Below, in pieces: positions 1 to 15,524 of a DNA stretch of 15,524 nucleotides. The DNA comes from a virus (lineage: Duplodnaviria; Heunggongvirae; Uroviricota; Caudoviricetes), in IMG/VR virus record IMGVR_UViG_2645727555_000007, positions 1-15,524 of that record; one strand, written 5' to 3'. The notes under the pieces were generated by a model. The model searched no databases and was not told where the DNA came from. It saw nothing but the letters and a program-made list of their open reading frames with translations. How positions within the stretch are numbered: the stretch's first letter is position 1; every line of letters starts with the position of its first letter. The translations under genes were made by a program, and so were the position numbers.

Positions 1-35
1 TGGCGGCTGGATCCGTCAAGGATCCGTGCGTGCAC

Positions 36-128: not shown

Positions 129-147
129 AACAGAATGGCCATCTTTC

Positions 148-162: not shown

Positions 163-339
163 AAAAGATGTGAGGGCTTTTGATTTGATGGGGTGAAAGG
201 TAAGGCCGTCAAAATCGCACTGAGGCGGTGAGAACATGCAGTCAGCGCGGTGGGATTGCGTAAGAGTCTGACCGTCGATGATGGTAATAAACAGGAAAGC
301 GTCGTGAAATTATCTGATTGATACAGGAGCTGGAGAGTC

Positions 340-362
340 GGGGCATAAATTTTTTATGCCCC
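340..362. other. Strong stem-loop GGGGCATAAA-TTT-TTTATGCCCC just 3' of the portal gene
   Basis: 10-bp perfect inverted repeat with a 3-nt loop, about 28 nt past the Q stop (minus strand). No U-tract follows on either strand, so it is not a classical intrinsic terminator. Confidence 0.35.
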
Positions 363-389
363 GCCGAAGCAGCAGACAAGCGAAGCGCG

Positions 390-1436
390 TCAGGATGTGG
401 GCTGGGTGTCTAACAGTGCGTAAGGGTTAAAGCGAATCACCTCTTCGCCAAGCCAGTCATTGATGTGCTTCATGGCCTCCATGACGGGCATCAGCTCGTT
501 AATTGCGTAAACCCGCGCGGCCTTCTCCACATCACCAAACGCACTTTTTTCGCCTGGCATCGCCCCCATCAGTTGCGGCGGAACGCGGTGCGCAGCCAGC
601 ACATCATCACGGGATGCCACCTTAACATTCATGAACTCATCCTTTGCGGTGATCTGCTGGAACGGCAAAATTTGCACCCCCTCTTTGCCACCGTTGGGCG
701 CATGAATGAGCACGTTTTTAAACGCACCACCACCACGCGCACCCTGTAGCGTTTCTTTCAGGGAGTCCATGCTTTCGCGGTTTACCTGCGCTGCACCGAT
801 GTAGATGATGCACCCGGCGTGGGATCCGTTGTCGTAATACAGTTTTCTGAACATGTCCGCCGAATGAGACAGGCTGGCCGAGAGTAATGCGCCGAGATAT
901 TCCGGCATGCCGTAGATTTCCTGGTTAATGTCAGGATTCATCAGGTGGCACACTTTGCCAGGGCGAAACTGAAACGCGTCCTTGCCATCCTGCACATACC
1001 ACCATGATTCAAGATCGCTTCCGCGTCGCATGTATTTCGCCAGGGCGTGCCGTAATTTAAGCGGTTCGCCGAGCATATTGCTTCGAAGCTCAAGGAATGC
1101 GTTACCGAACACAAACCAGTCCAGCGCCAGCGCCGAGAAATCCTGCCGGGAAAGCAACGGGTGCGGGATGTAGCAACCGAGTAATACATTGCGCTTAAAG
1201 TAAAGCGCAGACTGATGCCAGGACGTTTGCCGGGCAGCTCTTGCCAGACCGTACCAGTCCACCGGGGCTTCATACCACCGCCCGTTATCAGCACAGTACA
1301 TATTGTCCAGCAGGTCATGCCCGGTCAGGCGATAAGGACCATCAAATGTGAATGCACTGAGCGATGATTCTTTCCTGAGCGCATCAGCGAGATCAATGCG
1401 TGAACTCATGCGCACTTTTTTATTTTTTCTGCTCAT
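390..1436 (-). CDS. Q: Portal (capsid portal vertex) protein, P2 gpQ-like
   Basis: 348-aa ORF, portal-like by size and sequence character, placed directly after the terminase ATPase gene on the same strand as in P2. Its start overlaps the P stop (ATGA). The exact start is uncertain (an internal Met lies 9 codons in). Confidence 0.85.
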   Translation of the reverse strand: MSRKNKKVRMSSRIDLADALRKESSLSAFTFDGPYRLTGHDLLDNMYCADNGRWYEAPVDWYGLARAARQTSWHQSALYFKRNVLLGCYIPHPLLSRQDFSALALDWFVFGNAFLELRSNMLGEPLKLRHALAKYMRRGSDLESWWYVQDGKDAFQFRPGKVCHLMNPDINQEIYGMPEYLGALLSASLSHSADMFRKLYYDNGSHAGCIIYIGAAQVNRESMDSLKETLQGARGGGAFKNVLIHAPNGGKEGVQILPFQQITAKDEFMNVKVASRDDVLAAHRVPPQLMGAMPGEKSAFGDVEKAARVYAINELMPVMEAMKHINDWLGEEVIRFNPYALLDTQPTS

Positions 1437-3187
1437 CAGAACTCCATAACCGTGAAACGCTCGTTTTCTCCTTCGCCGCCAATTGGTTCGTTAATGACAG
1501 CAAGCATGGTTGCCCACGCAAGGTCGCCGTGGCTGATCCCCCTCGCGCGGTCCGTTTCGTAAGTGATAAAGCCGCCCGGTGTTTTCACCTTACGCACGGC
1601 GTTAAAGGCCGCGACCAGCTCGCGTTCGGCGCGATCGTATTCCCACCGCCCGGCACGCATTATTTGCAGCATTTTCAGTACCAGCGACCGTTTTGATGAC
1701 AGCGTGAAGGTGTACGGAATAGCGGCAGGGAAAAACCGTTTCACTATCTGATAAACAGCCTCCCCGTTCCCGCCCGTCACATCAATGCCGATGTGTTCCA
1801 CGTTGTAGCGACACGTGAACTCTTCAATGACTCTGGCCTGTTCTTCAAACTCCAGCCCCTGAACGCGTCGCGTCTCCACCGTTCGAAAACGGCCACCAGG
1901 AACAGACGGAGGAACCACCACGGACACAGCGCCGCTGTCGCCGTTGCCACTGCTGCCGTTTGCGTCATACCCAATCCATACCGGACGATTCCCCATCGGG
2001 CGGGGAGCAAAAGGTTTCCAGTCTTTCCAGTCGTCGTATCCGTCAACACCGCAGCCAATCAGGATATTCAGGTTAAATGCCGATTCCCCTTCGCGGACAA
2101 ACTCACACATATAGAGATTGAGGAACTCGTCTTCGGTGTTTTCATCACGAATTTCGTCGATATCGGTGTGTTCCCAGCCGTGATTAACCACATCTTCCAG
2201 CGTGACAATTTGCCGCCACGTCCGGTCAGGGCAGATAAGCCCGTTATGCAGCGTTTTCCAGTCCACAGAAAAACGCTGGCGTTTATGCGTGGCCTTTTTC
2301 TCGTTCCAGCGGTCGCCGTTCCAGTAGGCGTATGCCTCGTGCGTTTCGGTGGATGGCGTGGAGAAGTAGGTGCGCCGCAGTCCGCTGAGGGTTGCCATAG
2401 CGCCAGCCACCTTGCGCAGTTCAGCAAAGCGACTGACCCAGAAAAATTCATCAAAATAAAAATTGCCCGTATAGGACTGTGCCGACGCAGCAGAAGTGCC
2501 GAGAAAATGCAGCTCTGCGCCGTTGGAGAGGATGATTTTATCGCCCCCTTTCAGCTCCACATCAACTTCAGCCGCGGCCTTCTGAATAATGCTTTTAAAC
2601 TGGAACGCCTGACGACGCGACGCAGACAAAAAAATCTGGTTACGCTGGTAAGGTTGCGCCACATCGTCACGCAGCGCCATCAGCAGCGCTTCCTGTGCAA
2701 AATACCAGGTCGCCCCAATCTGTCGGGATTTCAGGATCATCCTGTTACGTATCCCTGCTTCCCTGCAAAGGGTCAGGGAGTCAAACCAGCCCCGCTGATG
2801 CCACTCCAGCCTGCTGATGATTTTTTCCCGCAGTGCGGCAATCTGTTCCGGCGTGAAATGATTTTTAAGCTTTTTCGCCCGGCCTTTCTTTCCTGTGGCC
2901 GTCGCATCCGGCTGGCCATCATGCAGTTTTTTAAGCTGCCGGGCCAGCAGGTCTATTTCCTTGAAGTCACCACCTGTTTTATTCTGTTTTTCAGTGAGCT
3001 GGATGAGGCGCGCATCGATGGACTGCGTGACACGCTGCACGGGTGGCATTTCATCCCACTGGTCGCGTTTTTTCCACGCATAAATCGTGTTCGGGTTTAT
3101 TCCCATCAGACGTGATATTTCTGCGGGCGGATAACCCTGCCAGTAAAGTTGCCGCGCACGCTGGCGCACAAAAGCGTCCTGAATCAT
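1436..3187 (-). CDS. P: Terminase large (ATPase) subunit, P2 gpP-like
   Basis: 583-aa ORF (P2 gpP is about 590 aa), divergently oriented to the capsid operon as in P2, with terminase-like N-terminal and nuclease-like C-terminal sequence character. Confidence 0.9.
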   Translation of the reverse strand: MIQDAFVRQRARQLYWQGYPPAEISRLMGINPNTIYAWKKRDQWDEMPPVQRVTQSIDARLIQLTEKQNKTGGDFKEIDLLARQLKKLHDGQPDATATGKKGRAKKLKNHFTPEQIAALREKIISRLEWHQRGWFDSLTLCREAGIRNRMILKSRQIGATWYFAQEALLMALRDDVAQPYQRNQIFLSASRRQAFQFKSIIQKAAAEVDVELKGGDKIILSNGAELHFLGTSAASAQSYTGNFYFDEFFWVSRFAELRKVAGAMATLSGLRRTYFSTPSTETHEAYAYWNGDRWNEKKATHKRQRFSVDWKTLHNGLICPDRTWRQIVTLEDVVNHGWEHTDIDEIRDENTEDEFLNLYMCEFVREGESAFNLNILIGCGVDGYDDWKDWKPFAPRPMGNRPVWIGYDANGSSGNGDSGAVSVVVPPSVPGGRFRTVETRRVQGLEFEEQARVIEEFTCRYNVEHIGIDVTGGNGEAVYQIVKRFFPAAIPYTFTLSSKRSLVLKMLQIMRAGRWEYDRAERELVAAFNAVRKVKTPGGFITYETDRARGISHGDLAWATMLAVINEPIGGEGENERFTVMEF

Positions 3188-3341
3188 TGCTCCCCCTGAG
3201 TAATTACAGGAAGATTACCCGCGCGCGAAACTGTTCTCCTTAACCCCCTGTTCTGGCTGTTTTCTTACAACAAAAGCCCTTTGTATCAGCCTGTTACGCT
3301 TTGCCATCATGACTGAAGAACCAGTCAGAGGGGCAAAAACT
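3188..3341. promoter_or_regulatory. Divergent late-promoter region between P (leftward) and O (rightward)
   Basis: Only sizeable intergenic gap between the divergent Q-P and O-N-M-L operons, which is where P2 has its PP/PO Ogr-activated late promoters. It contains a CTGTTCT direct repeat (3231-3237 and 3248-3254). No perfect TGT-N12-ACA activator dyad was found by eye. Confidence 0.4.
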
Positions 3342-4178
3342 ATGGCTAATGAAAAAAAGACATCCCGCAAAAAGTTTCGCGTGGCTGTCTCCGGTGTAAC
3401 GGCAGACGGGCGCGAAATCAACGGCGACATGCTGAAAGCTGCCGCCACCAGTTATAACCCGTCCGTTTATGGTGCACGTGTGAATATTGAGCACATCCTG
3501 TCACCACTCCCCGGTAGCGAGTTTTCCGCTATGGGCGATGTTGTGGGGTTGAGCACCGAAGACATAACCGATGGCCCGCTGGCAGGCCGCACGGCACTGT
3601 ATGCCGAAATTGAGCCGACCGCTCGCATGATGTCCCTGCTTAACGATGGTAAAAAAATTTACTCCAGTATTGAGCTGGAACCACAGTCAACCATCACGGG
3701 AGGCCCTTACCTGCGCGGGCTGGCAATGACCGACACCCCTGCCAGCCTGGGCACGGAACGTCTGGCCTTTGCGGCACAACAACGTATGCAACTGATGACA
3801 TTCAACTGTCAGCAGGGAGACGTGGCGATGTTTACCGCCGCTATGGAGTCAGAACTTATCGAACTCACCGAACAACGTCAGGAAGAAGGCACCCAGTGGT
3901 TTAACCGCGTTATGGGGATTATTGGCCGTGGCCGCAAAGCGGATGACGCCAGTTTCTCCCGTATTCAGGAAGCGGTGGAAGGTGTCGCAACGTCACAGGC
4001 CGACATTATCGACCGTTTTAATGCGCTGGAAACCCGCCATCAGCAGGACAGCCAGAAAATCACTTTACTGACCACAGAGCTGACAGCACTGAAGGAAAAA
4101 CTGCGCACGCAGGACGGCGATCCGCAGAACCGGTTCACCGCAACGGGCGCAGCCTCCGATCAACTGGCTGACTTCTGA
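3342..4178 (+). CDS. O: Capsid scaffolding protein, P2 gpO-like
   Basis: The ORF track starts at 3309, but the ATG at 3342 is preceded by AGAGGGG with good spacing and gives an N-terminus (MANEKKTSRKKFRVAVSGVTADGR...) of the gpO type. Its position before the major capsid gene matches P2. Confidence 0.8.
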   Translation: MANEKKTSRKKFRVAVSGVTADGREINGDMLKAAATSYNPSVYGARVNIEHILSPLPGSEFSAMGDVVGLSTEDITDGPLAGRTALYAEIEPTARMMSLLNDGKKIYSSIELEPQSTITGGPYLRGLAMTDTPASLGTERLAFAAQQRMQLMTFNCQQGDVAMFTAAMESELIELTEQRQEEGTQWFNRVMGIIGRGRKADDASFSRIQEAVEGVATSQADIIDRFNALETRHQQDSQKITLLTTELTALKEKLRTQDGDPQNRFTATGAASDQLADF

Positions 4179-4201
4179 TAAGACAAAGGAGCAAATTTTT
4201 T

Positions 4202-5254
4202 ATGAATCTGGTGATGTCAGATATTACCCGCAACAAGCTGGGTTGCTATATGGCGCAGCAGGCGTCGCTTAACAACATCCCGGTATCTGCACTGGTATCG
4301 CGATTTACCGTGGAACCCTCGGTGCAGCAGCGTTTTGAAAACGCAGTAAAGGAGAGCACTGAATTTACAAAAAAAATTAACGTGTTCGGTGTGACCGACC
4401 AGAAAGGCGAAAAAATCCTCCTGGACACCACCGGGCCGATTGCGCGCACGAATACCAGTTATGACGGCACAAAACGCCGTAACCCGAATAACGTGGTTGA
4501 TCTGAAAAACCGTAAATATCAGTGCGAACAGGTGAACTACGACACGTTTATTTCGTATCCGCAGCTTGATGCCTGGGCGGCACACCCTGATTTTCAGTCA
4601 CGCGTCAGCACACAGATTGCCCGGCAGGTGGCGCTTGACCGCATCATGATCGGTTTCAACGGCACGTCTCACGCAGATGAGTCCAACTTCAGCACCAACA
4701 AGCTGCTTCAGGACGTTAACGTGGGATGGCTGGAGCACATCAGAACCGACGCCAGCGAGCGCGTAATGAATGACGTGACGCTGACCTCCCGCAACATGGA
4801 CAACACCGTGGCGCACGCGGGTAAGTATGCGAACGCTGATGCACTGGTACAGGACGCGCGCTCATCCCTGCTGGATGAATGGCACAAGGAAGCTGACGAC
4901 CTCGTGGTGATTATGGGGCGCAACCTGTTTAACTCGCTGCGTCTGCCCGTGCTGAACAGCATCAGCGGCCAGAATCCCAATGCGGAATTACTTGCCGGAC
5001 AGCTCATCCTGTCATCGCGCGCCATTGGCGGACTGGATGTATTCCTTGCGCCGTTCTTCCCGGATTCAACGATGCTGATCACCTCGTTCAACAACCTGTC
5101 GATTTACTGGCAGAAAGGAACAATGCGTCGCCTGATGAAAGACGAGCCGGAATACAACCGCATCGCCACCTACCAGTCCATCAATGACGCTTATGTCGTT
5201 GAAGACTATGGCAAGTGCGCGATGGTCACTGGCCTGAAGTTCGCCGACAGCTAA
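4202..5254 (+). CDS. N: Major capsid protein, P2 gpN-like
   Basis: 350-aa ORF with AAGGAG upstream and gpN-type motifs (FTVEPSV, GFNG, VGWLE, LVVIMGRNL, VVEDY). It sits between the scaffold and small-terminase genes. Confidence 0.9.
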   Translation: MNLVMSDITRNKLGCYMAQQASLNNIPVSALVSRFTVEPSVQQRFENAVKESTEFTKKINVFGVTDQKGEKILLDTTGPIARTNTSYDGTKRRNPNNVVDLKNRKYQCEQVNYDTFISYPQLDAWAAHPDFQSRVSTQIARQVALDRIMIGFNGTSHADESNFSTNKLLQDVNVGWLEHIRTDASERVMNDVTLTSRNMDNTVAHAGKYANADALVQDARSSLLDEWHKEADDLVVIMGRNLFNSLRLPVLNSISGQNPNAELLAGQLILSSRAIGGLDVFLAPFFPDSTMLITSFNNLSIYWQKGTMRRLMKDEPEYNRIATYQSINDAYVVEDYGKCAMVTGLKFADS

Positions 5255-5263
5255 TCAACTCAC

Positions 5264-5282
5264 GGCGGGCATCATGCCCGCC
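5264..5282 (+). other. Stem-loop GGCGGGCA-TCA-TGCCCGCC immediately after the major capsid gene
   Basis: 8-bp GC-rich perfect stem with a 3-nt loop, 10 nt after the N stop. It is followed by GGAGAG and the M start rather than a U-tract, so it may be an mRNA stability or attenuation element. Confidence 0.4.
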
Positions 5283-5299
5283 TGTAACGGAGAGAAAAA

Positions 5300-6100
5300 A
5301 TGATTACTCCTGCACAGCAACACTGGCAGAACGTGATGGCACAGCGCGCAGGCCGGGCGAATGAAGGCGTGGACCACGCCGCGCGTACCGCGCATGAAGA
5401 GGTGCTGTATCGTCTGCGTCTGGCACAGGCCCGACTTAAGGGCGTACAGGCCAGAAGCGCGAAAGCCGCCATCAAAAAAGAGTTGTTGCCGGACTTTTCC
5501 GGCTGGATTGAGGGAACGCTGGAGGCTGACGGCGGGCAGCAAGATGAAGTGATTGCCACGCTGATGGTGTGGGCAATTGACTGCGGCGATCTTCCGCTGG
5601 CGCTGCGTATTGGTGCGTATGTGGTCCGTCACAACCTCATCATGCCGGATAACTTTGGCCGTACTGCTGCCACGGTACTGACCGAAGAAATCTGTAATCC
5701 GGTACTGACGCAGGCCGGGACGGATGCCGACGCGGATTTGTCCGCCTTTATCGAACCACTGGACACCCTCCGGGAGATTGTCACCGACCAGGACATGCCG
5801 GACGAAGTGCGCGCCAAATTATGCAAGGCGTGCGCCTTTGCCCGTCGTGGCCTGACCGATGCGGACAGCATGGCCTCATCACTGAAGCTGCTGCGCGAAG
5901 CGATGCACCTGAACCCGAACGCAGGTGTGAAACGCGAGATTGCAACCCTTTCCCGCGCCCTGAAAAAAGCCGATTCCGCAGCCGCACCAGAAGATGCCAG
6001 CACACCGCAGGCGCAGGACGAAAGCAGCAAAAGTAAAAAGACAACGCGGAAGCCTACAACACGAAAAACCACCGCGACGCAGAAGGCGAAGCGCGGTTAA
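5300..6100 (+). CDS. M: Terminase small (endonuclease) subunit, P2 gpM-like
   Basis: 266-aa ORF containing MPDEVRAKL and a basic Lys/Arg/Thr-rich C-terminal tail, as I recall for P2 gpM. GGAGAG lies 5 nt upstream. Confidence 0.85.
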   Translation: MITPAQQHWQNVMAQRAGRANEGVDHAARTAHEEVLYRLRLAQARLKGVQARSAKAAIKKELLPDFSGWIEGTLEADGGQQDEVIATLMVWAIDCGDLPLALRIGAYVVRHNLIMPDNFGRTAATVLTEEICNPVLTQAGTDADADLSAFIEPLDTLREIVTDQDMPDEVRAKLCKACAFARRGLTDADSMASSLKLLREAMHLNPNAGVKREIATLSRALKKADSAAAPEDASTPQAQDESSKSKKTTRKPTTRKTTATQKAKRG

Positions 6101-6116
6101 CGACTGACCCCGTCAG

Positions 6117-6188
6117 CGGGCGGCGTGCGCGGTGTTCCGGTTTGACTCCGTGACCGTTTACACCGCACACCCACCGCCCGATTTTTTC
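6117..6188 (+). terminator. Long imperfect hairpin followed by a T-tract in the M-L intergenic region (attenuator or partial terminator candidate)
   Basis: CGGGCGGCGTGCGCGGTG (6117-6134) pairs with CACCGCACACCCACCGCCCG (6161-6180) with a few mismatches, followed by ATTTTTTC and then AGGAG and the L start. Confidence 0.3.
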
Positions 6189-6201
6189 AGGAGTGAACCC
6201 C

Positions 6202-6696
6202 ATGAGTATGGTTGCCAGAACCAACCCCGGCCCCGCAGAGGACGACATCACCGATACCGATGATGGTGATACCCGTATTTCAGCGGGCGCATTCTGGCCG
6301 GATATTGTGCTGCGTGAGCTGCGTCTGGCGATACGACTGCCGGGCCGTGTGACCACCTCCCGCCTGCTGCATACCGCCACCGGGGCCGTGGCACACGTTA
6401 CCCGCGAGCTGAAAGCGTGGCAGCAGGAACAGCAGGCGGCTGGCCATCAGACGCTGGCCGATGTTCCGGCACCCGTAATTAACGGAGAAAGCGTCAATCT
6501 CTGGCACTGGCGCAATGCTGTTTATACCGCCACGCGCGCCCTGATTCTGGAGCGTTATCGTGATGCAGACACAACGGACAAGGGCGACCGCCGGGCGGAC
6601 GCTCTGGATATACAGACATCGGATTTGTGGCGTGATGTGAGCTGGGCCATCTCTGACATTCTGTGCCGCCCGCGAATCTTTGCGGAGTTGTGCTGA
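6202..6696 (+). CDS. L: Head completion/stabilisation protein, P2 gpL-like
   Basis: About 164 aa from the ATG at 6202, which has AGGAG 8 nt upstream (the ORF track start at 6193 is a GTG). Position and size match P2 gpL; its stop overlaps the X start. Confidence 0.8.
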   Translation: MSMVARTNPGPAEDDITDTDDGDTRISAGAFWPDIVLRELRLAIRLPGRVTTSRLLHTATGAVAHVTRELKAWQQEQQAAGHQTLADVPAPVINGESVNLWHWRNAVYTATRALILERYRDADTTDKGDRRADALDIQTSDLWRDVSWAISDILCRPRIFAELC

Positions 6697-6896
6697 TGAA
6701 AGTGAAGGCACTGGAAGGCGACACCGTGGATTCGCTCTGTTTCCGGTACTACGGCACGACGCAGGGCGTCACCGAAAAGGTGCTGGATGCCAACCCCGGA
6801 CTCTGTCAGCAGGTATTTCTGGACGCCGGGCAGGAAGTGGAGATGCCGGAGCCGGAGAAGAAGAAACGAGAAATGATTCAGTTGTGGGGGGAGTAG
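6696..6896 (+). CDS. X: Tail protein X (LysM-like), P2 gpX-like
   Basis: 66-aa product MKVKALEGDTVDSLCFRYYGTTQGV...ANPGL...LWGE, clearly alignable to P2 gpX as I recall it. The track ORF 6663..6896 shares this frame with an upstream alternative start. Confidence 0.8.
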   Translation: MKVKALEGDTVDSLCFRYYGTTQGVTEKVLDANPGLCQQVFLDAGQEVEMPEPEKKKREMIQLWGE

Positions 6897-6898
6897 CA

Positions 6899-7222
6899 GT
6901 GAGCACCATTCAAACAGGGATCACAGAGCAGGTTATTGCGTGGCTCTTTGACCACCTGCCAACGGTGTATGCAGTAGGCGCGGCGGTCAGCATTTCCGCG
7001 CTGATGAGTCTTTATGACGGACGAACACTGGTTCAGACCGTAACGGGATCGCTGGCGTGCGGCGTTCTTGCCATGGCCGTGGCCGGGTCGTTGCGCTTCT
7101 TCGGGTTTCCTGAAGATGCCGTGACGTTTATCGGCGCATCAATCGGTTTTATGGGCGCAGAGAAAGCACGCGACAAGGTTATTGCGGCCTTTAATCGCAG
7201 GGTGAAGGAGAAGGACGAATGA
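6899..7222 (+). CDS. Holin (multi-TM small membrane protein)
   Basis: GTG start with a strong GGGGGAG site 7 nt upstream. The 107-aa product has 2-3 hydrophobic segments and a charged C-terminus (KEKDE), and sits immediately upstream of the endolysin. The track ORF from 6680 is an upstream read-through of the same frame. Confidence 0.65.
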   Translation: MSTIQTGITEQVIAWLFDHLPTVYAVGAAVSISALMSLYDGRTLVQTVTGSLACGVLAMAVAGSLRFFGFPEDAVTFIGASIGFMGAEKARDKVIAAFNRRVKEKDE

Positions 7223-7611
7223 GCAACACATTTAAATTCAGCAGCCGGAGCGAAAAGAATTTGCAGGGCGTAAATCCTGATCTGGTGAAAGTGACCCGAC
7301 GGGCACTGGAAATCTCGGAAGTGGATTTTGGTATCACCGAAGGGTTGCGCAGCCGTTACCGCCAGAAACAACTTGTGGCCACAGGTAAGAGCCAGACCAT
7401 GAACAGCCGCCACCTTACGGGGCATGCCGTGGATGTTGTGGCTTATATCGGCAGCCAGGTGTCATGGGAATGGCCGCTGTACGAAAAAATCGCAGCAGCA
7501 TTCAGACAGGCCAGCCGGGAACTGAATATTCCGGTGGAATGGGGCGGCGACTGGAAGACCCTGAAAGACGGACCGCATTTTCAGTTACCACACGGAGCCT
7601 ATCCGGCATGA
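7219..7611 (+). CDS. Endolysin, peptidase M15 (VanY/L-Ala-D-Glu peptidase)-like
   Basis: 130-aa protein with SRHLTGHAVDV and a later DGPHFQ His, fitting the H-x6-D...H zinc-peptidase pattern of M15-family phage endolysins. ATGA overlap with the holin stop. Confidence 0.7.
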   Translation: MSNTFKFSSRSEKNLQGVNPDLVKVTRRALEISEVDFGITEGLRSRYRQKQLVATGKSQTMNSRHLTGHAVDVVAYIGSQVSWEWPLYEKIAAAFRQASRELNIPVEWGGDWKTLKDGPHFQLPHGAYPA

Positions 7612-8015
7612 AGCTCTGGCCCACGCTGGGCGTCGCTTTCCTTCTGATTGCCGCATGGGGAACATCCATGCGTCTGTCGTGGTCGCTGGGCTGGGAGAAC
7701 GCCAGAAACGAAGCGCAGGCCAGCGCTCTGAAAAGTACCGTCGACACTCTGAATATCATCAGCACCGGGGTACAGGATATGCAGCAGGTGCTGGCGCAAC
7801 TCCGCGTGGAAAATCAACAGCGAAATCAGGACGGAGAGGCCAGACGTGAACAGCTACGCAACGATATTGCAAAAGATGAATGCGCCCACGCTTTGCCTGA
7901 CGCTCGTTTTACTGACAGGTTGCGCAGACACGCAGAACGCGCCACGGCCAGCGCCGTCAGTCCGGCTTATACCGCAGACGCTGACCATACCGGTAACGCC
8001 TCCCCCCTTCCCTGA
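7608..8015 (+). CDS. i-spanin (Rz/LysB-like inner-membrane spanin)
   Basis: ATG at 7608 overlaps the endolysin stop. The product has an N-terminal TM segment (LWPTLGVAFLLIAAWG) followed by a charged, coiled-coil-like periplasmic region. The track ORF from 7464 is an in-frame upstream extension. Confidence 0.7.
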   Translation: MKLWPTLGVAFLLIAAWGTSMRLSWSLGWENARNEAQASALKSTVDTLNIISTGVQDMQQVLAQLRVENQQRNQDGEARREQLRNDIAKDECAHALPDARFTDRLRRHAERATASAVSPAYTADADHTGNASPLP

Positions 8016-8166
8016 CACTCCCACATGGGGAAATCTCGGTATATGGGGCGACCGCCTTCTGGATGCACTGGAAACCTGTAACGCGGATAAACGGGCCATT
8101 GAATTACTGGAACAGCGCAGGCTGCAAAGACTGAACAACGAGGACAACAACCATGCTGAAAACTGA
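7846..8166 (+). CDS. o-spanin (Rz1/LysC-like outer-membrane lipoprotein), overlapping the i-spanin in another frame
   Basis: Signal peptide with lipobox LLTGC, a Pro-rich mature region and a C-terminal Cys. It starts inside the i-spanin gene in a different frame and extends beyond it. The start is GTG 7846 (GGAGAGG upstream) or ATG 7876. Confidence 0.7.
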   Translation: MNSYATILQKMNAPTLCLTLVLLTGCADTQNAPRPAPSVRLIPQTLTIPVTPPPFPDTPTWGNLGIWGDRLLDALETCNADKRAIELLEQRRLQRLNNEDNNHAEN

Positions 8167-8620
8167 TTCCCTGCGTGAAGCCATGACCCGTTCATGCCGA
8201 TGGTGTCAGGCTAACCCGGAAAAATTCACCATTTTCGTGGAGAGCGGCAACATTGAAACGACAGGAGAAACCCCATCGTTTGTTTACCGCTATCAGATGG
8301 TGATGTTTGTCATGGATTACGCCGGGGAGCTGGACGACCTCACGCTGCCGCTGCTGGCGTGGTTATCAGAAAATCAGCCACAGTTGTTGCTCAATCCGGA
8401 GCGTAATCAGGACATCAAATTCTCCGCCGTTATCAATGACGATGACAGCGCCGATCTCCTGTTTACGCTCCCTCTGCGGGAACGCGTTCGCATCACGCGC
8501 AGCAGTCAGGGCACGCCGCAGGCAGAACACCTGCCGGAGCCAAAACCCCGCCTGCCATCTTCCGAAGGCGACTGGTCGCATGTATTCCAGGATGTGACGT
8601 GGGGTGAAAGCGATGGATAA
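8153..8620 (+). CDS. R: Tail completion protein, P2 gpR-like
   Basis: 155-aa ORF, the same length as P2 gpR, in the conserved position after the lysis genes. Confidence 0.8.
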   Translation: MLKTDSLREAMTRSCRWCQANPEKFTIFVESGNIETTGETPSFVYRYQMVMFVMDYAGELDDLTLPLLAWLSENQPQLLLNPERNQDIKFSAVINDDDSADLLFTLPLRERVRITRSSQGTPQAEHLPEPKPRLPSSEGDWSHVFQDVTWGESDG

Positions 8621-9248
8621 GGCATTCACCCGCGTGGATGAAACCTTTGAGGCCATCCGCGACAGCCTGAATCAGCAGGCCATCAATAACATTGCCAGAA
8701 AGCTGGCACAGGATTTACGCCGCGCCCAGCAGGCGCGCATCCGGTCACAGAAAGCGCCGGACGGGACCGCGTGGACACCACGCAGACGCCGCGTAACCCG
8801 GATACAGGAACGCATTCGCTTTATCTGGAATAACGAAGCACGCACGCTGAAAAACTGGCATCACGACACGGGGAAATACGGGCGAACCATTACCGGGTGG
8901 GATGAGGATAAAAATAATATCCGCACGTTTTACCGGGATGACATCGACCGTTTTCTGGAAATACGCACCCGGCGCATCAACCAGGACAGCACAAAGCACG
9001 TCCCCATGTTCGTAAAACTGCGCACCTCCCGCTACCTGAAAGCCCGTGCGGATGCTTCCGGTGTGACGGTGGGTTACAGCGGCGTGGCCGCACGTATTGC
9101 ACGCGTTCATCAGTTCGGTGAGCGCGATCAGGTTGCGCCGGGCATTTTCACCGATTACCCGGTACGTGAGCTGTTGGGCATCAGTCAGGCAGATGAACGC
9201 CTGATTTATAACACGGTGCTGGGCCGGATTGCGGAGGCTGTACGGTGA
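8613..9248 (+). CDS. S: Tail completion / virion morphogenesis protein, P2 gpS-like (longer than canonical)
   Basis: Positional equivalent of gpS, with the ATG at 8613 overlapping the R stop (alternative GTG at 8604). About 211 aa against about 150 for P2 gpS as I recall it. Its stop overlaps the V start. Confidence 0.7.
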   Translation: MDKAFTRVDETFEAIRDSLNQQAINNIARKLAQDLRRAQQARIRSQKAPDGTAWTPRRRRVTRIQERIRFIWNNEARTLKNWHHDTGKYGRTITGWDEDKNNIRTFYRDDIDRFLEIRTRRINQDSTKHVPMFVKLRTSRYLKARADASGVTVGYSGVAARIARVHQFGERDQVAPGIFTDYPVRELLGISQADERLIYNTVLGRIAEAVR

Positions 9249-9826
9249 GCGCAGAACTCATGCGACTGCTGAGCAATATCATCCGCACCGGGATCATCTC
9301 TGAAGTTGATGAGAAGTCCTGGCGCGTGCGCGTTCGCAGCGGCGAACTGGAAACAGGCTGGCTGCGCTGGAACACCACGCGCGCGGGAGCCTTCAATGTG
9401 TGGCTGCCGCCATCACCAGGCGAACAGGTGGTAATTGCCTGCATTGGCGGCAATCCGGAAACCGCCATGATAATTGGCAGCCTGTGGAGTGATGCCAATC
9501 CGGCCCCCGGCAAAAGCCTGAAAGAAATCGTGATCAGCGCGCCGGACGGCGCGGTGTTCCGCTACGACGCGGACGCAGGCGCACTGAGCGCCAGCGGCAT
9601 GAAAACAGCCACCCTGCAGGCATCCGTCAGCGTGACACTGGATACGCCCGTCGTGGAATGCACAGACCTTCTGAGAACAGCGACGATTGACGTCACAAAA
9701 GGAGGAAAGATGAGCGGCAATATCACGCACAGCGGCGGCGATTTCACCTCAAACGGCATCACAGTGCATACGCATAAACACGGTGGCGTTAAAGGTGGCA
9801 GCGATTCGACGGGAGGCCCGCAGTGA
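9245..9826 (+). CDS. V: Baseplate spike/assembly protein, P2 gpV-like
   Basis: GTG start with GGAGG 7 nt upstream. N-terminal NIIRTGIISEVD and C-terminal HTHKHGG...GG match gpV as I recall it. Confidence 0.85.
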   Translation: MSAELMRLLSNIIRTGIISEVDEKSWRVRVRSGELETGWLRWNTTRAGAFNVWLPPSPGEQVVIACIGGNPETAMIIGSLWSDANPAPGKSLKEIVISAPDGAVFRYDADAGALSASGMKTATLQASVSVTLDTPVVECTDLLRTATIDVTKGGKMSGNITHSGGDFTSNGITVHTHKHGGVKGGSDSTGGPQ

Positions 9827-10173
9827 CAACCCGCTACACAGGAATGAATCCGGACGGAACGGGAAACCTGAACGATATGGAGCACCTGAAACAGTCAGTC
9901 AGGGACATCCTGACCACCCCGCTGGCAAGCCGGGTTATGCGACGGGAATATGGCAGCCTTGTGCCCGATTTAATTGACGAACCCATGAATAACACCACAC
10001 GTCTGCAATGCATGAGTGCTGCCGTGATTGCGCTGACACGATGGGAACCCCGCATTGCCCTGGATGCCATCGACGTTGTCTGGAAGGCAGGAGGCCGCGC
10101 CAGGGTGACGCTGTCAGGTACTGTCATGCAGACCATGCAGAATGTTGAATTAACCATCACGCTGAGAGAGTAA
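9823..10173 (+). CDS. W: Baseplate wedge protein, P2 gpW-like (gp25 family)
   Basis: 116 aa (P2 gpW is about 115 aa). GTG start overlapping the V stop, with GGGAGG upstream; conserved position. Confidence 0.85.
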   Translation: MTTRYTGMNPDGTGNLNDMEHLKQSVRDILTTPLASRVMRREYGSLVPDLIDEPMNNTTRLQCMSAAVIALTRWEPRIALDAIDVVWKAGGRARVTLSGTVMQTMQNVELTITLRE

Positions 10174-10176
10174 ATC

Positions 10177-11073
10177 ATGCCCGCCGTTGACCTTTCACAG
10201 TTACCGGACCCCGCCATCATCGCGGAGCCTGACTTTGAGGCAATTCTGGCTGACACAAAGGCCATGATGATTGCGGCTTATCCCGCCGAACAACGTGAAG
10301 CCGTCTCCGCCGCGCTGGAGCTGGAATCGGAACCTCTGAACGTTATCGCCCAGACAACAGCGTTTCGTGAAATGCTGTTACGCCAGCGGGTCAATGAGGG
10401 TGCACGCGCCTGCATGTTAAGCCACAGCGCCGGGACAGACCTGGACAACCTCGCAGGCAATATGAACACAAAGCGCCTGGTTATCACTCCGGCAACGGAT
10501 ACCACCGACGCGGTGATGGAAAGCGACACCTCGCTGAGACTGCGGGCGCAACGGGCGTACGACGGCCTGAGTGTTGCTGGCCCGTCAGGTGCATACGAGT
10601 ATTTTGCCCGCAGCGCCAGCGGTCTGGTGCGTGATGCGCGGGCTATCAGTCCGTCTCCGGCAAATGTGACGGTTTCCATCCTGTCCACTGAAGGCGACGG
10701 CACAGCAACGGAGGCGTTGCTTAATACCGTTCGCGCCGTTCTGAATGCAGAGGATACCCGCCCGGTGGCCGACCGCCTGACCGTACAGAGTGCCAGAATC
10801 GTGACATGGCGGCTGAATGCAAAACTGTACTTTTACCCCGGCCCGGAATCCGAACCTATTCTGGCTGCGGCGGAATCGTCGTTCAGGAAGTGGCTGGCTG
10901 ACCAGGGGCTTATCGGTCAGGACGTGGCGTTGTCCGCCATTGCTGCCGCACTGCATGTGCACGGTGTGCAACGCGTGGAGATAACCGAACCCACACAGAA
11001 TATGGCCATCAGCGACATACAGGCGGCGCGCTGTGAGTCGTTCACCATCAGCGAAGGTGGGCGCAATGAGTAA
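10177..11073 (+). CDS. J: Baseplate assembly protein, P2 gpJ-like
   Basis: 298 aa (P2 gpJ is about 302 aa); conserved position between W and I. Confidence 0.9.
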   Translation: MPAVDLSQLPDPAIIAEPDFEAILADTKAMMIAAYPAEQREAVSAALELESEPLNVIAQTTAFREMLLRQRVNEGARACMLSHSAGTDLDNLAGNMNTKRLVITPATDTTDAVMESDTSLRLRAQRAYDGLSVAGPSGAYEYFARSASGLVRDARAISPSPANVTVSILSTEGDGTATEALLNTVRAVLNAEDTRPVADRLTVQSARIVTWRLNAKLYFYPGPESEPILAAAESSFRKWLADQGLIGQDVALSAIAAALHVHGVQRVEITEPTQNMAISDIQAARCESFTISEGGRNE

Positions 11074-11596
11074 TTCGCTGTTACCACCATCAGCCAGCAA
11101 TTTCATGCGTTGCGCCGAAGCTGTCGGAGCGCGCATTACAAACATCCCGGTAGACCTCAACACACTGTGGTCACCAGATACCTGCCCGGTGCATCTGCTG
11201 CCTTATCTCGCCTGGGCATTTTCCGTTGACCGCTGGGATCGCAACTGGCCGGAAGAGACAAAGCGACAGGTTATTCGTGATGCATGGCTGATACACCGAC
11301 ACAAAGGGACCATCAGCGCACTGCGCCGGGCCATTGAGCCGCTGGGATACCTCATTCGCGTGTCTGAGTGGTGGGAGTTCGGCGGAGAACCGGGAACATT
11401 TACCGTTGAAGTCGGCACGCTGGACAGTGGCGTGACGGAGGAAATGTATCTGGAAATGGAGCGGTTGATTGCTGATGCCCGCCCGGTCAGCCGCCACATG
11501 ACAGGGCTGAATATCATTCAGGAAATTCCGGGGGATATTTTCGCAGCGGCGGCAACTTATGACGGTGAAGTCATTACCATTTATCCGGACGATTAA
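11066..11596 (+). CDS. I: Baseplate/tail protein, P2 gpI-like
   Basis: The ATG at 11066 overlaps the J stop and gives 176 aa, the same as P2 gpI. The track ORF from 11033 is an upstream extension of the same frame. Confidence 0.85.
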
Positions 11597-11598
11597 GC

Positions 11599-14148
11599 AT
11601 GAGTACCACAACACGTAAATTTAAAACCGTTATCACCGATACGGGTGCAAAAAAATTAGCTCAGGCAGCCGCGCCAGATGGTAAGCCTGTCCGCCTGACT
11701 CATATGGCCGTGGGCGACGGTGGCGGCACGTTGCCCACACCAGACAGTAAGCAGACCCGTCTGGTGCATGAGGTGTGGCGACATACTGTTAATCGCGTCA
11801 TCCTGGACGCAACACATCAGAACCGCATTATTGCGGAGCTGGTTATTCCTCCTGAAACGGGCGGATTCTGGATCCGGGAAATTGGTGTATTTGATGAGCA
11901 CGGCGATTTAATCGCGGTGGGCAATACTGCCGAAAGTTACAAGCCAGCCGTTGCCGAAGGGTCCGGTCGTGCACAAACATTTCGCACCATTCTGACCGTA
12001 TCCAGCACTGCCACCGTGGCGCTTACCGTGGATAACACCATGGTGATGGCCACAGTGGATTACGTGGATGACAAACTGAAAGAGCATGAACAGTCACGAC
12101 GTCACCCGGACGCCTCGCTGACCGCAAAAGGCTTTGTTCAACTCAGTAGCGCCACTAACAGCGTGTCTGAAACGCAGGCTGCAACGCCGAAAGCAGTAAA
12201 GGCCGCGTATGATCTTGCTAACGGTAAATATACTGCGCAGGATGCCACCACAGCGCGAAAAGGCCTTGTCCAGCTCAGTAGCGCCACCAACAGCACGTCT
12301 GAAACGCTCGCCGCAACACCAAAGGCAGTAAAAGCAGCCTATGACAATGCTGAGAAACGTCTGCAGAAAGACCAGAACGGTGGCGATATTCCAGATAAGG
12401 GCACTTTCCTGAACAACATTAACGCGGTCAGTAAAACAGACTTTGCTGATAAGCGTGGTATGCGTTATGTGCGGGTTAACGCTCCTGCAGGTGCAATATC
12501 TGGAAAATATTACCCTGTTGTTGTTATGCGTTCTGCTGGCTCAGTAAGCGAACTGGCATCAAGGGTCATTATCACCACGGCAACGCGAGCCGCAGGCGAT
12601 CCGATGAATAACTGCGAGTTTAACGGATTTGTTATGCCTGGTGGCTGGACTGACAGGGGGAGTTATGCTTATGGAATGTTCTGGCAATATCAAAACAATG
12701 AACGAGCCATCCACTCAATAATGATGAGTAATAAGGGCGATGATTTGCGCTCTGTGTTCTATGTTGATGGCGCTGCTTTCCCTGTTTTTGCGTTTATTGA
12801 AGATGGCCTGTCAATATCCGCACCTGGTGCTGATCTCGTTGTTAATGATACGACCTATAAGTTTGGGGCAACAAATCCGGCGACTGAATGTATCGCGGCG
12901 GACGTTATCCTTGATTTTAAGAGTGGCCGTGGTTTTTATGAGTCCCATTCGTTAATCGTTAACGATAACTTGTCGTGCAAAAAACTTTTTGCCACAGACG
13001 AAATTGTAGCGCGTGGTGGTAATCAGATTCGAATGATAGGTGGGGAGTATGGTGCATTATGGCGTAATGATGGCGCTAAAACTTACCTGCTGCTTACCAA
13101 TCAAGGTGATGTTTATGGTGGCTGGAATACATTAAGACCGTTTGCTATTGATAACGCAACCGGCGAACTGGTTATTGGAACCAAACTGTCCGCAAGTCTG
13201 AACGGTAATGCATTAACAGCAACAAAGCTGCAAACGCCAAGACGGGTTTCTGGTGTTGAGTTTGATGGTTCCAAAGATATTACTTTAACCGCCGCGCATG
13301 TGGCTGCTTTTGCCAGAAGGGCAACGGATACATATGCCGATGCGGATGGTGGCGTTCCCTGGAATGCCGAATCAGGCGCTTACAATGTCACCCGCTCTGG
13401 CGACAGCTATATTCTGGTTAACTTCTATACCGGAGTCGGAAGTTGCCGGACCCTGCAGATGAAGGCGCATTACAGAAATGGAGGTCTGTTCTACCGTTCC
13501 TCAAGAGATGGCTATGGTTTTGAGGAAGGCTGGGCAGAAGTTTATACCTCGAAAAATCTTCCACCAGAAAGCTACCCAGTTGGCGCACCAATCCCGTGGC
13601 CATCAGATACCGTTCCGTCTGGTTATGTCCTGATGCAGGGGCAGACTTTTGACAAATCTGCCTACCCGAAACTTGCAGTGGCTTATCCGTCAGGCGTTAT
13701 TCCTGATATGCGTGGCTGGACGATTAAGGGCAAGCCCGCCAGTGGTCGTGCCGTATTGTCTCAGGAACAGGACGGCATTAAATCGCACACCCACAGCGCC
13801 AGCGCATCCAGTACTAATTTGGGGACGAAAACCACATCGTCGTTTGATTACGGAACTAAATCCACAAATAACACCGGAGCACATACACACAACTTTGCTT
13901 ACAACAATACTTCAGCATACGCAGAAACTCCCGGTACCGGTGGTGGAATGCATGCAAGTAACACAAGCAAGACAGCAAGTAATCGTGTATTAAGCGCAGG
14001 AGCTCATGCTCACACAGTAGCAATAGGTGCGCATACACATACGCTCGCTATTGGTTCGCATACACACACCATTACCATTGCCGCTTATGGCAACGCGGAA
14101 AACACCGTAAAAAACATCGCATTTAACTATATTGTGAGGCTTGCATAA
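11599..14148 (+). CDS. H: Tail fibre protein (gpH position): P2-like N-terminus with a lambda Stf / T4 gp37-like His-repeat receptor-binding tip
   Basis: 849 aa. The N-terminal part is of the conserved P2-family H type; the middle has two tandem Phage_fiber_2-type repeats; the C-terminus has HxH motifs and ends ...[18 protein letters not shown], which I recall as the C-terminus of T4 gp37 and lambda Stf. Confidence 0.9.
12124..12345 (+). repeat. Two about 90-bp in-frame direct repeats (period 132 bp) inside H
   Basis: 12124-12213 and 12256-12345 encode (A/R)KG(F/L)VQLSSATNS(V/T)SET(Q/L)[12 protein letters not shown] with only a few nucleotide differences, seen directly. Confidence 0.8.
13999..14079 (+). 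repeat. Three tandem 27-bp coding repeats encoding G(A/S)H(A/T)HT(V/L/I)(A/T)I HxH units in the tail-fibre tip
   Basis: GAHAHTVAI / GAHTHTLAI / GSHTHTITI read in frame. Further HxH motifs lie upstream (KSHTHSA near 13781, GAHTHNF near 13876). Confidence 0.8.
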
Positions 14149-14747
14149 TGGCATTCAGAATGAGTGAACAACCACGAACCATAAAAATTTATAATCTGCT
14201 GGCCGGAACCAATGAATTTATTGGTGAAGGTGATACATACATTCCACCTCATACAGGTCTACCTGCAAATAGTACTGATATTGCTCCGCCAGATATTCCA
14301 GCTGGCTTCGTGGCTATTTTCAACAGTGATGAGGCGTCCTGGCATCTCGTTGAAGATCATCGTGGTAAAACGGTTTATGACGTGGCTTCCGGCGACGCGT
14401 TATTTATTTCTGAACTGGGTCCGTTACCGGAAAATGTTACCTGGTTGTCGCCGGAAGGGGAATATCAGAAGTGGAACGGCATAGCCTGGGTGAAGGATAC
14501 GGAAGCAGAAAAACTGTTCCGGAAACGGGAGGCGGAAGAAACAAAAAACAGCCTCATGCAGGTAGCCAGTGAGCATATTGCGCCGCTTCAGGATGCTGCA
14601 GATCTGGAAATTGCAACGGAGGAAGAAATCTCGTTGCTGGAAGCATGGAAAAAGTATCGGGTATTGCTGAACCGTGTTGATACATCAAGTGCACCGGATA
14701 TTGAGTGGCCTGCTTCCCCAGTGGAATCAAGGAGTAAACAAGCATAA
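14148..14747 (+). CDS. tfa: Tail fibre assembly chaperone, lambda Tfa-like (gpG position)
   Basis: 199 aa beginning [29 protein letters not shown]..., which I recall as near-identical to the lambda Tfa N-terminus. ATG overlaps the H stop. Confidence 0.9.
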
Positions 14748-14840: not shown

Positions 14841-15488
14841 ATGAATGTTATTTCATCATTAAAACAGCTTAACAGACAGCGAAATATTAAAACAAAAAAG
14901 ATAAAGACGAAGGCCAGACTGGCATTTCTAAAAATGCGATACAGAAGGAAAACATCATTACAGCCGGATAGTTATAAAACAGTGTGCATTTTCATGCACA
15001 TGCAGGCCATTGGTGACGGCATCGTTACCTCAGGGTTTATTAAACAACTTCAAGAATCCGGCATGGTGGTATATGTGATAGCACCTCCAAGAGTATCATT
15101 CCTCTTTACTGATATTGTTGGCGTGGATGCCTTTATTTCTTACGAGAAAAATAAATTTAACGAACTAAAAGCAAAGATAAAAAAACTGAATGTAGATCTT
15201 GTTGTTGACTTCTCAAATTTTGATAACACAGCGATAACCAGATTGCAAACACTACATTTACTTAAACCTAAACACTCTATCTGTTTTAATCATCCTGCCG
15301 TAACTATTTTTGATACAAATATAATCGATAATCGTTCCATTCACTCATCTGAAAGAATGAAAAAAGTTTTATCTTTACTAAAGATAAAAAATAATGATTA
15401 CGCTGCAGCGCTTAATTTTGACAACAAAATATATCGAGTAGGCAGCCTGACGGCTGCGGCTTGTCATGGTCTGCAATTACCGTTATAA
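14841..15488 (+). CDS. AT-rich cargo ORF at the P2 Z/fun-equivalent position: GT9 (heptosyltransferase-family)-like N-terminal Rossmann domain protein, function unknown
   Basis: ORF track 14781..15488 starts at TTG; the ATG at 14841 with AGGG upstream is the more likely start (about 215 aa). Roughly one-third GC by eye against over half in the structural genes. A Lys/Arg-rich N-terminal stretch is followed by KTVCIFMHMQAIGDGIVTSGFIKQLQESGMVVYVIAPP...NVDLVVDF, matching the GD...LK..FP...DxLV pattern of GT9 N-terminal domains (WaaC/WaaQ-like) from memory. Confidence 0.5.
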   Translation: MNVISSLKQLNRQRNIKTKKIKTKARLAFLKMRYRRKTSLQPDSYKTVCIFMHMQAIGDGIVTSGFIKQLQESGMVVYVIAPPRVSFLFTDIVGVDAFISYEKNKFNELKAKIKKLNVDLVVDFSNFDNTAITRLQTLHLLKPKHSICFNHPAVTIFDTNIIDNRSIHSSERMKKVLSLLKIKNNDYAAALNFDNKIYRVGSLTAAACHGLQLPL

Positions 15489-15524
15489 AAACAGGCAATG
15501 TCATTGTCTTTCAGGTGGTTATAT

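Follow-up and report, generated by a model that had tools for sequence, protein, structure and literature searches.

A mosaic tail fibre gene in a P88-like prophage of Escherichia coli

The receptor-binding protein of a P88-like prophage of E. coli is encoded by a tail fibre gene that was very probably put together, through homologous recombination, from three or more modules. The gene occupies positions 11599–14148 of the window (the whole stretch of 15,524 nucleotides analysed here), and all features described below lie on its plus strand. Module 1, residues 1 to about 235, corresponds to the N-terminal domain and linker repeats of P2/P88 gpH. Module 2, from about residue 237 to about residue 675, would be a shaft acquired from a lambdoid side tail fibre. 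Module 3, from about residue 680 to residue 849, is a collar and needle of the T4 gp37/lambda Stf type that was inherited together with a lambda-type Tfa chaperone. The swapping of tail-fibre modules is a known phenomenon, and for the fibre genes of P2 horizontal exchange has been recognized since the early 1990s. The present gene is an ordinary example that brings no conceptual change. The only element with a potential for novelty is a linked glycosyltransferase gene of the GT9 family.

Modular architecture of the fibre gene

The window belongs to a P88-like prophage (P2 family) in E. coli and matches phage P88 with 96.7% nucleotide identity across positions 8–12345. The fibre gene is an 849-aa open reading frame in the gpH position, downstream of the baseplate genes for gpJ and gpI (Baseplate_J and Tail_P2_I) and upstream of a gene for a Caudo_TAP-type chaperone. 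Its product is identical to WP_054191972.1. The initial annotation described the protein as about 180 residues longer than P2 gpH, and the difference is exactly 180 (849 versus 669 aa). It also described a fusion of a P2-type N-terminus to a lambda Stf/T4 gp37-type tip. The mosaic itself stands; however, the backbone is P88-like rather than that of P2 itself, and at least three donor modules are present instead of two.

The N-terminal gpH-type domain (aa 6–153, 11614–12057) matches PF12571 with E=6.4e-54, and a role in baseplate attachment is likely. By analogy with P2, this part would anchor the fibre trimer to the gpI/gpJ baseplate wedge. Residues 1–254 align with P2 gpH 4–251 at 73% identity, as had been anticipated for the N-terminus, and are 97% identical to P88 gpH; like gpH in both phages, the gene follows the baseplate genes J and I. 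Past residue 254, however, there is no resemblance to either gpH, the hypervariable regions of P88 gpH included. These hypervariable regions set host range in P88 (PMC5285337). Two further differences from these phages concern the neighbourhood: the chaperone is of the lambda type and not of the gpG type, and the invertible alternative fibre segment and DNA invertase of P88 are missing at the matching position in intact relatives.

The N-terminal domain is followed by two copies of the Phage_fiber_2 linker repeat (12126–12351; PF03406, E=1.5e-40 over two stretches). At the nucleotide level they form a 94-nt direct repeat, D1 (12126–12219 and 12258–12351), whose copies are 81% identical. The linker motif is also found in P2, P88, lambda, mEp332 and Mu gpS. 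The first crossover (12286–12307, aa 230–237) falls within this repeat, in a conserved 23-residue linker sequence common to P2-like, lambdoid and Mu-like fibres. In a three-way alignment, the informative sites change here from the P88 type to that of the lambdoid phage mEp332: the final P88-type site of the run is at 12285 and the earliest mEp332-type site at 12308. A single stray P88-type site lies downstream, at 12351.

Beyond the first crossover, the gene encodes a lambdoid side-tail-fibre shaft (12308–13623, aa ~237–675). Over window positions 12239–13889, which cover the shaft and most of the needle, the identity to mEp332 stf is 96.7% at the nucleotide level. The shaft contains a trimerisation domain of the T4 gp34 C-terminal type (aa 418–517; PF21446, E=2.3e-27) and a gp37_C-type domain (aa 582–651; PF12604, E=7.4e-5), and its matches in the PDB are 4UXE, 5YVQ and 8JU3. 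The same shaft is found in lambdoid Stf proteins of 1139–1238 aa. The lambdoid Stf proteins of mEp332, ev099 and 2H10 nevertheless differ from the present fibre at both ends. In place of the PF08400 N-terminal domain, which is present in the matches of 1160–1238 aa, the latter has the P2-type PF12571 domain, and its tip carries another insert.

The second crossover lies within the collar-coding region, at about 13624–13679, where the informative sites change from the mEp332 type to that of the P88-like prophage of strain VG35A2; the position of this crossover is approximate, since informative sites are few and one of them (13750) is discordant. From 13581 through the Tfa and GT9 genes, the window and the VG35A2 prophage are 96.9% identical in nucleotide sequence, and the module of collar, needle and Tfa is common to other P88-like prophages as well. 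P88, mEp332 and VG35A2 serve in these comparisons as representative parents, not as the actual donors. The similarity leaves P88 for a lambdoid sequence and then passes to the tip sequence of P88-like prophages, and the proposal that the distal module was replaced horizontally is supported.

A further comparison is with a 703-aa fibre of P88-like prophages, such as those in the E. coli strains VG35A2 and CREC-591. It shares the N-terminus (97.6% identity over aa 1–251), the short tip with five HxH motifs (CREC-591 has two substitutions in the last 110 aa), the Tfa protein (93%) and the GT9 neighbour. It differs in having extra linker repeats and another shaft, whereas the 849-aa form carries the lambdoid shaft of the mEp332 type.

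The GC content is 0.559 in the backbone (1–11598), 0.539 in 11599–12345, 0.455 in 12346–13150, 0.504 in 13151–13900 and 0.456 in 13901–14148. A shift near 12400, noted previously as a drop from that point onward, is therefore present, but it is not monotonic, and the switch of parent occurs about 100 nt further upstream.

Could the mosaic be an artefact, in which an assembler jumped from a P88-like prophage to a lambdoid stf gene and back via the shared linker and collar sequences? The window is an entire contig (DF970300.1, 15.5 kb) of a draft assembly (GCA_001297725.1), the sequences in which both junctions lie are repeated within E. coli genomes (at a median of 2 and a maximum of 14 places in each), and neither the whole gene nor the first junction is found in any of 5426 complete RefSeq E. 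coli genomes. However, independent assemblies contain 16 further distinct 849-aa proteins that are 99–100% identical along their whole length; the contigs that encode them number more than 50, and several of these contigs measure 4.8–5.1 Mb (up to 5.08 Mb). Six loci were read. In all of them the genes for Tfa, GT9 and gpU lie downstream of the fibre gene, and in five the complete P88-like arrangement from gpI to gpU, upstream baseplate genes included, is preserved; the remaining locus (L012) is a remnant in which the part from the fibre gene through Tfa and GT9 to gpU survives. These full-length variants in the same context refute an assembly chimera, which we regard as exceedingly improbable. 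A look-up of exact-sequence clusters returned the protein as a singleton, a result that is misleading when taken alone.

The gene is a well-resolved natural case of fibre rebuilding, in which the Phage_fiber_2 linker and the collar served as conserved "adaptor" sequences for recombination. Through them, shaft and needle have moved between a contractile-tailed P2-family phage and non-contractile lambda-like phages. For the engineering of fibre chimeras, the crossovers mark junctions that are tolerated in nature.

Collar, needle and tip insert

Residues 657–849 match the structure of the T4 gp37 tip (2XGF) with E=4.3e-72, and the last 192 residues are 61% identical to lambda orf-314, in agreement with the predicted relationship of the C-terminus to gp37 and Stf. 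The collar domain (aa 662–709, 13582–13725; PF07484, E=7e-11) aligns with the D10 collar of gp37 in 2XGF, for which the domain limits have been described (PMC6957217). Identity to gp37 amounts to 84% in the collar and descending stem (T4 residues 811–917) and 77% in the ascending stem and C-terminus (975–1026). The conserved C-terminus of 18 residues (14092–14145) would return to the collar. This terminal sequence had been pointed out from the beginning; lambda orf-314 ends in exactly the same residues, whereas the end of T4 gp37 differs by one residue. The 16-residue C-terminal sequence that is conserved in the T4 gp37/lambda Stf tip family is likewise present.

The needle stem (aa 730–823, 13786–14067) contains five HxH motifs, which would form a metal-binding ladder: HTH at 730, HTH at 762, HAH at 803, HTH at 812 and HTH at 821. 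There are no others in the protein. Repeated HxH motifs had been assigned to the C-terminal third; they do occur there, but they are confined to the last 120 residues. T4 gp37 and mEp332 Stf have seven such motifs and lambda Stf has eight. If the needle is organized as in 2XGF, three chains would descend it, turn at the tip and ascend to the collar. Trimer formation is expected from the same analogy. Each HxH of the three chains would then hold one metal ion, giving five predicted sites compared with seven in T4. The coordination of iron, or of another metal, by HxH is taken from 2XGF via PMC6957217. An AlphaFold2 monomer model of aa 657–849, built from an alignment of 29 sequences, was unusable (mean pLDDT 36, pTM 0.21).

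The ladder, an 11-residue terminal sequence and an adjacent chaperone gene of the gp38/Tfa type are all shared with T4 gp37. However, the rest of the fibre is not gp37-like, and it is a single polypeptide, in contrast to the four-protein long fibre of T4. The difference within the tip is equally clear. The needle has no equivalents of T4 H929/H931 and H966/H968, the motifs that correspond to the second and fifth of T4 are 38 residues apart instead of 62, and the tip sequence is unrelated. These 38 residues (aa 765–802, 13891–14004) form an insert flanked by the second and third HxH motifs of the fibre and are the presumed determinant of receptor specificity. In the T4/lambda tip family, about 215 distal residues are conserved except for a specificity insert, to which the divergence is confined, and a gp38/Tfa-like gene lies next to the fibre gene (PMC9659904). 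The present fibre fits this description, with its gp38/Tfa-like gene immediately downstream, but its insert is another one and could be matched to none of the five family members whose receptors have been published.

No alignment was obtained between the insert and T4 918–979, lambda or mEp332. The stretch of 151 nt that codes for the tip had no blastn match among 50,697 phage records, and a tblastn search of the same records with the 48-aa tip returned only a Pseudomonas phage (E=0.2). Among 5426 complete E. coli genomes, 38 contain the stretch. A glycine-rich match (GTG-GG-M) between the insert and T4 G938–M946 appeared only in the HMMER alignment; the global alignment lacks it, and we consider it unreliable. 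The insert, apparently unique to its lineage, would set the receptor.

Receptor specificity and the linked GT9 gene

The fibre gene is followed by a gene for a lambda-type Tfa assembly chaperone of 199 aa (14148–14747; PF02413, Caudo_TAP, E=5e-43). The protein is 94% identical to lambda Tfa and resembles P2-type gpG only in its last 67 aa (40–42%). Its start overlaps the stop codon of the fibre gene (TAATG), and the two genes are translationally coupled. Tfa may be needed for folding of the fibre, as judged by analogy with T4 gp37.

Downstream of Tfa lies the 5' part of a low-GC gene for a GT9-family glycosyltransferase (14841–15434), which is linked to the tip type and interrupted. The intact gene encodes 392 aa and is located at 9243–10421 of one of the loci (L011); the window leaves its sequence at 15435. 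The GT9 gene occurs in 49 of the 5426 complete genomes. Its protein scores 27 bits against PF01075 (cut-off 22), and its matches to RfaQ and heptosyltransferase I are weak. Scans for promoters and terminators around Tfa and GT9 detected none above the shuffled background on the plus strand.

P2 itself adsorbs to the LPS core, and recognition of LPS would hence not set the fibre apart from P2. The initial annotation had predicted a receptor of the OmpC/LPS type unlike that of P2, and this prediction does not hold: only the needle scaffold is conserved, and the insert cannot be aligned to those of T4, lambda and mEp332. The receptor is not predictable, because the specificity insert matches no characterised phage. 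Our best guess, held with low confidence, is an LPS-core sugar. It rests on three indirect points: the GT9 linkage, one related phage that is reported to use LPS, and the weak glycine-rich resemblance to T4 G938–G943. A search of the literature on mEp332 returned no receptor data.

Recognition of OmpC with LPS as a co-receptor, as in T4 gp37 and lambda Stf, would give a lambda/T4-like host range. The collar and needle scaffold is strongly homologous to those two proteins, Tfa is nearly identical to lambda Tfa, and T4 gp37 itself binds OmpC (PMC5221442, PMC6957217). However, mutagenesis of the T4 tip placed the receptor contacts within residues 932–959, and the OmpC-contact residues K945, I951 and Y953 (PMC6957217) map to a part that has no counterpart in the present fibre. 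The two HxH motifs nearest to the tip are missing there as well, and the insert is unrelated to T4, lambda and mEp332 and is found in no characterised phage. Furthermore, members of the family that share this scaffold differ in their reported receptors, which are LPS GlcII, OmpC or OmpF (PMC9659904). We therefore consider OmpC recognition unlikely. Similarity to gp37 or Stf tells of the scaffold, not of the receptor, and the present case cautions against this common shortcut.

Instead, the fibre may bind an LPS-core sugar while the linked GT9 enzyme modifies the same core in the lysogen, so that tip, chaperone and GT9 would act as a cassette to "adsorb and then mask the receptor". This is a possibility to which we give somewhat more weight than to OmpC, although it too is improbable. 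GT9 belongs to the family of LPS-core heptosyltransferases, as its PF01075 score above the cut-off indicates, and LPS GlcII is the receptor reported for the related phage PhiNP (PMC9659904). Tip and GT9 gene are contiguous in VG35A2, within the region of 96.9% identity, and adjacent in CREC-591. They are about 0.8 kb apart at every inspected locus, and at least 23 strains appear in both the tip and the GT9 matches listed. Prophage remnants that have lost the fibre retain the GT9 gene. On the other hand, shared ancestry within a single prophage lineage may be all that lies behind the linkage. The NCBIfam equivalog scores of the GT9 protein are far below the cut-offs, a sequence search of the PDB returned no relative, and a literature search for such a prophage GT9 gene found nothing specific. 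In the window, moreover, a mobile element disrupts the gene, which therefore cannot act there.

Our own version of the cassette is at best tentative: the five-HxH tip, the lambda-type chaperone and GT9 could be one co-inherited cassette, in which the fibre would bind an LPS-core structure and GT9 would remodel that structure in the lysogen. If so, the lysogen would be guarded from superinfection, and released virions would not be lost on lysogens. This would be a lysogenic conversion acting on the LPS core, of which we found no description for P2-family coliphages. It would also explain the retention of GT9 in degraded prophages.

The element that breaks the GT9 gene occupies 15435–15524 and ends the contig; this stretch is the end of a multicopy mobile element. 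A total of 412 places across 225 genomes contain it; plasmids account for 387 of these places, and the annotation there is often that of an IS3-family transposase.

Modules and joins of the tail fibre

The window corresponds in full to contig DF970300.1 of the draft E. coli assembly GCA_001297725.1. The prophage whose late region it carries is P88-like and belongs to the genus Xuanwuvirus (family Peduoviridae, P2 family). Phage P88 matches window positions 8-12345 with 96.7% nucleotide identity, from the portal gene to partway into the tail fibre gene. The fibre gene (11599-14148, + strand) has the baseplate genes J and I upstream and a fibre-assembly gene downstream; the ATG of the latter overlaps the fibre stop codon (TAATG). 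The fibre protein of 849 aa exceeds P2 gpH (669 aa) by 180 aa, as the initial annotation stated.

Pfam and PDB sequence searches resolve the protein into a chain of modules. A P2-type N-terminal domain (aa 6-153; PF12571, E=6e-54) is followed by two Phage_fiber_2 linker repeats (aa 173-263), which are encoded by a 94-nt direct repeat (12126-12219 and 12258-12351) and also match Mu gpS (PDB 5YVQ). Further along are a domain resembling the C-terminal trimerisation domain of T4 gp34 (aa 418-517; PF21446, PDB 4UXE), a gp37_C-type domain (aa 582-651; PDB 8JU3) and a collar (aa 662-709; PF07484). Residues 657-849 as a whole align with 2XGF, a crystal structure of the receptor-binding tip of T4 gp37, at E=4e-72.

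These modules resemble different phages. The first 254 residues share 97% identity with P88 gpH and 73% with P2 gpH, and past residue 254 no similarity was found in comparisons with both proteins. The side tail fibre gene of the lambdoid phage mEp332 shares 96.7% DNA identity with nt 641-2291 of the fibre gene (aa 214-763), and those of ev099, 2H10 and PhiR34_1 are similarly close to the shaft DNA. From nt 1983 of the gene (aa 661), a P88-like prophage of E. coli VG35A2 is 96.9% identical through the fibre end, the lambda-type tail fibre assembly chaperone (Tfa) and the next gene; the fibre of that prophage itself has only 703 aa. The chaperone of the window is 94% identical to lambda Tfa; P2 gpG resembles it in the last 67 residues only. 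On these alignments, the fibre gene is a mosaic of at least three parts: the head is of P2-family type, the shaft is lambdoid, and the collar-needle-chaperone module is one also carried by other P88-like prophages. The fibre had been proposed to be mosaic, and this is correct; the joins can now be mapped. Informative sites place the first crossover at 12286-12307 (aa 230-237), within the second linker repeat. The second lies roughly at 13624-13679, within the collar-coding region. Both joins fall within sequences common to unrelated fibres, which matches what homologous recombination would need.

The described drop in GC content along the gene is also present. GC is 0.559 in the backbone, 0.539 over the initial 747 nt of the gene and 0.455 at 12346-13150, and it returns to 0.504 at 13151-13900 before falling to 0.456. 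The end of the lowest-GC stretch (12346-13150) coincides exactly with the end of the gp34-type trimerisation domain (aa 517), past which GC rises to 0.50. This step hints at an older module boundary within the lambdoid shaft. A separate observation concerns names: many E. coli and Shigella lambdoid side-tail-fibre proteins (e.g. P0022, P0054 and P0105 in our homology search) are called 'short-chain fatty acid transporter' at NCBI, which looks like a propagated annotation error.

The fibre as an established lineage

The fibre mosaic is a real, established lineage. A homology search returned 16 further proteins of 849 aa with 99-100% identity over the full length. These come from over 50 contigs, several of which span 4.8-5.1 Mb. 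An assembly chimera was considered because the window, a short draft contig, has both joins in multicopy sequences, and neither the whole fibre gene nor the first crossover occurs in any of 5426 complete RefSeq E. coli genomes; the exact protein is also a singleton cluster. However, the order of fibre, Tfa, a family 9 glycosyltransferase gene (GT9) and gpU recurs in all six loci read. Baseplate genes lie upstream of the fibre in five of these; in the sixth, the remnant L012, an integrase takes their place. The 16 full-length relatives, with this gene context shared by the six loci read, rule out an assembly chimera. A relative of 817 aa, from a different Escherichia lineage, has the N-terminus and shaft in common with the fibre and a different tip. 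The fibre is a new combination inside well-known families and is already present in many public E. coli genomes, annotated as 'phage tail protein'.

The working of the fibre can be proposed from its homologues. The protein would trimerise, dock onto the baseplate by its P2-type N-terminus and gain its reach from the lambdoid shaft. Tfa would assist folding of the collar and needle; lambda Tfa is reported to stand in for T4 gp38 in gp37 folding (Montag et al. 1989, cited in PMC9659904). Receptor contact would be made by a 38-residue insert at the needle turn. Compared with P88, the P2-type distal half is gone, and it is a hypervariable region of this half (716-746) that sets the P88 host range (PMC5285337). 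P88 also has an invertible alternative fibre end (20445-22593 of its locus, L002), in which another pair of fibre and chaperone lies on the opposite strand, along with a DNA invertase. In two intact relatives of the window (L010 and L011), Tfa and GT9 occupy this position, and the invertible segment and its invertase are absent. Fibre specificity in this lineage is thus fixed rather than switchable.

The needle tip and its receptor

The terminal 18 residues of the fibre, which the initial annotation linked to T4 gp37 and lambda Stf, are the same as in lambda orf-314 and one residue off T4 gp37. Repeated HxH motifs were placed in the C-terminal third; there are exactly five (aa 730, 762, 803, 812 and 821), confined to the last 120 residues rather than spread over that third. 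In T4 gp37, the collar comprises residues 811-881 and 1010-1026, the stem 882-931 and 960-1009, and the receptor-binding tip 932-959, and the needle holds seven iron ions coordinated by histidines of all three chains (PMC6957217). Fibre residues 657-764 are 84% identical to T4 gp37 811-917, and residues 798-849 are 77% identical to 975-1026. The two T4 motifs nearest the tip (H929/H931 and H966/H968) have no counterpart, and the surviving motifs are separated by 38 residues in the fibre versus 62 in T4. This 38-residue stretch gave no alignment to T4, lambda or mEp332. The needle is thus predicted to have five metal sites and to differ at its tip.

Mutagenesis of T4 assigned the LPS pocket to G940, G942, G943, S947 and Y949 and the OmpC patch to K945, I951 and Y953 (PMC6957217), all of which fall exactly in the part without a counterpart in the fibre. 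The published description of the T4/lambda tip family agrees with this: its members conserve about 215 aa of scaffold, diverge at the specificity insert and adjoin a gp38/Tfa-like chaperone, and the characterised ones are reported to use differing receptors, including LPS GlcII, OmpC and OmpF (PMC9659904). The tip of the window had no match in phage records at the DNA or protein level and occurs in 38 of the 5426 complete E. coli genomes. An OmpC/LPS-type receptor unlike that of P2 is therefore not supported: it does not follow from a tip that lacks a T4/lambda counterpart and is absent from phage records, in a family with varied receptors. P2 itself adsorbs to the LPS core, so 'LPS' would not set the fibre apart from P2.

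The insert contains a lone histidine (aa 785) and a glycine-rich 'PGTGGGM' (TGGGMHAS, aa 780-787, is encoded at 13936-13959, with P778-G779 just upstream). HMMER aligned 'PGTGGGM' to G938-M946 of T4 gp37, which form part of the glucose-binding pocket there. Global alignment did not reproduce this, and the resemblance may be due to chance in a low-complexity segment.

The glycosyltransferase gene beside the chaperone

Downstream of Tfa, at 14841-15434, lies the 5' part of GT9 (GC 0.35), just 3' of the fibre-assembly gene, where P2 has its Z/fun accessory locus. In intact relatives (e.g. L011, 9243-10421), the product is a family 9 glycosyltransferase of 392 aa. It scores 27 bits for PF01075 (cut-off 22) and weakly matches RfaQ and WaaC, two heptosyltransferases of the LPS core. 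GT9 is found in 49 of the 5426 complete E. coli genomes, always on the chromosome. In all loci inspected, it adjoins the short tip with five HxH motifs, and the two occur together in at least 23 strains among the matches listed for each. GT9 may serve lysogenic conversion by acting on the LPS core, and its linkage to the tip suggests that the fibre receptor may be an LPS-core structure that the prophage would then modify. The tip-chaperone-GT9 linkage is the one lead worth pursuing.

The persistence of GT9 in prophage remnants without fibre or head genes suggests that selection on the host keeps this accessory gene in place. The P88-like deletion remnants L012, L007 (MB06101), L016 (CREC-591) and L017 (NCTC11121) all retain GT9 and the tail genes downstream. 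Such remnants have head genes fused to fibre fragments, IS2 replacing the fibre, or an integrase directly beside the fibre gene.

In the window, the end of a multicopy element, one that resides mainly on plasmids, interrupts GT9 at 15435. The last 90 nt (15435-15524) match this element at 100% and are out of the GT9 reading frame, so the gene is disrupted in this strain. The contig ends at 15524 because the sequence there is a multicopy repeat. Across 225 genomes, the element occurs at 412 places, of which 387 are on plasmids, often beside IS3-family transposases. Several of the listed 100%-identical matches lie on plasmids of O169:H41 and O27:H7 strains.
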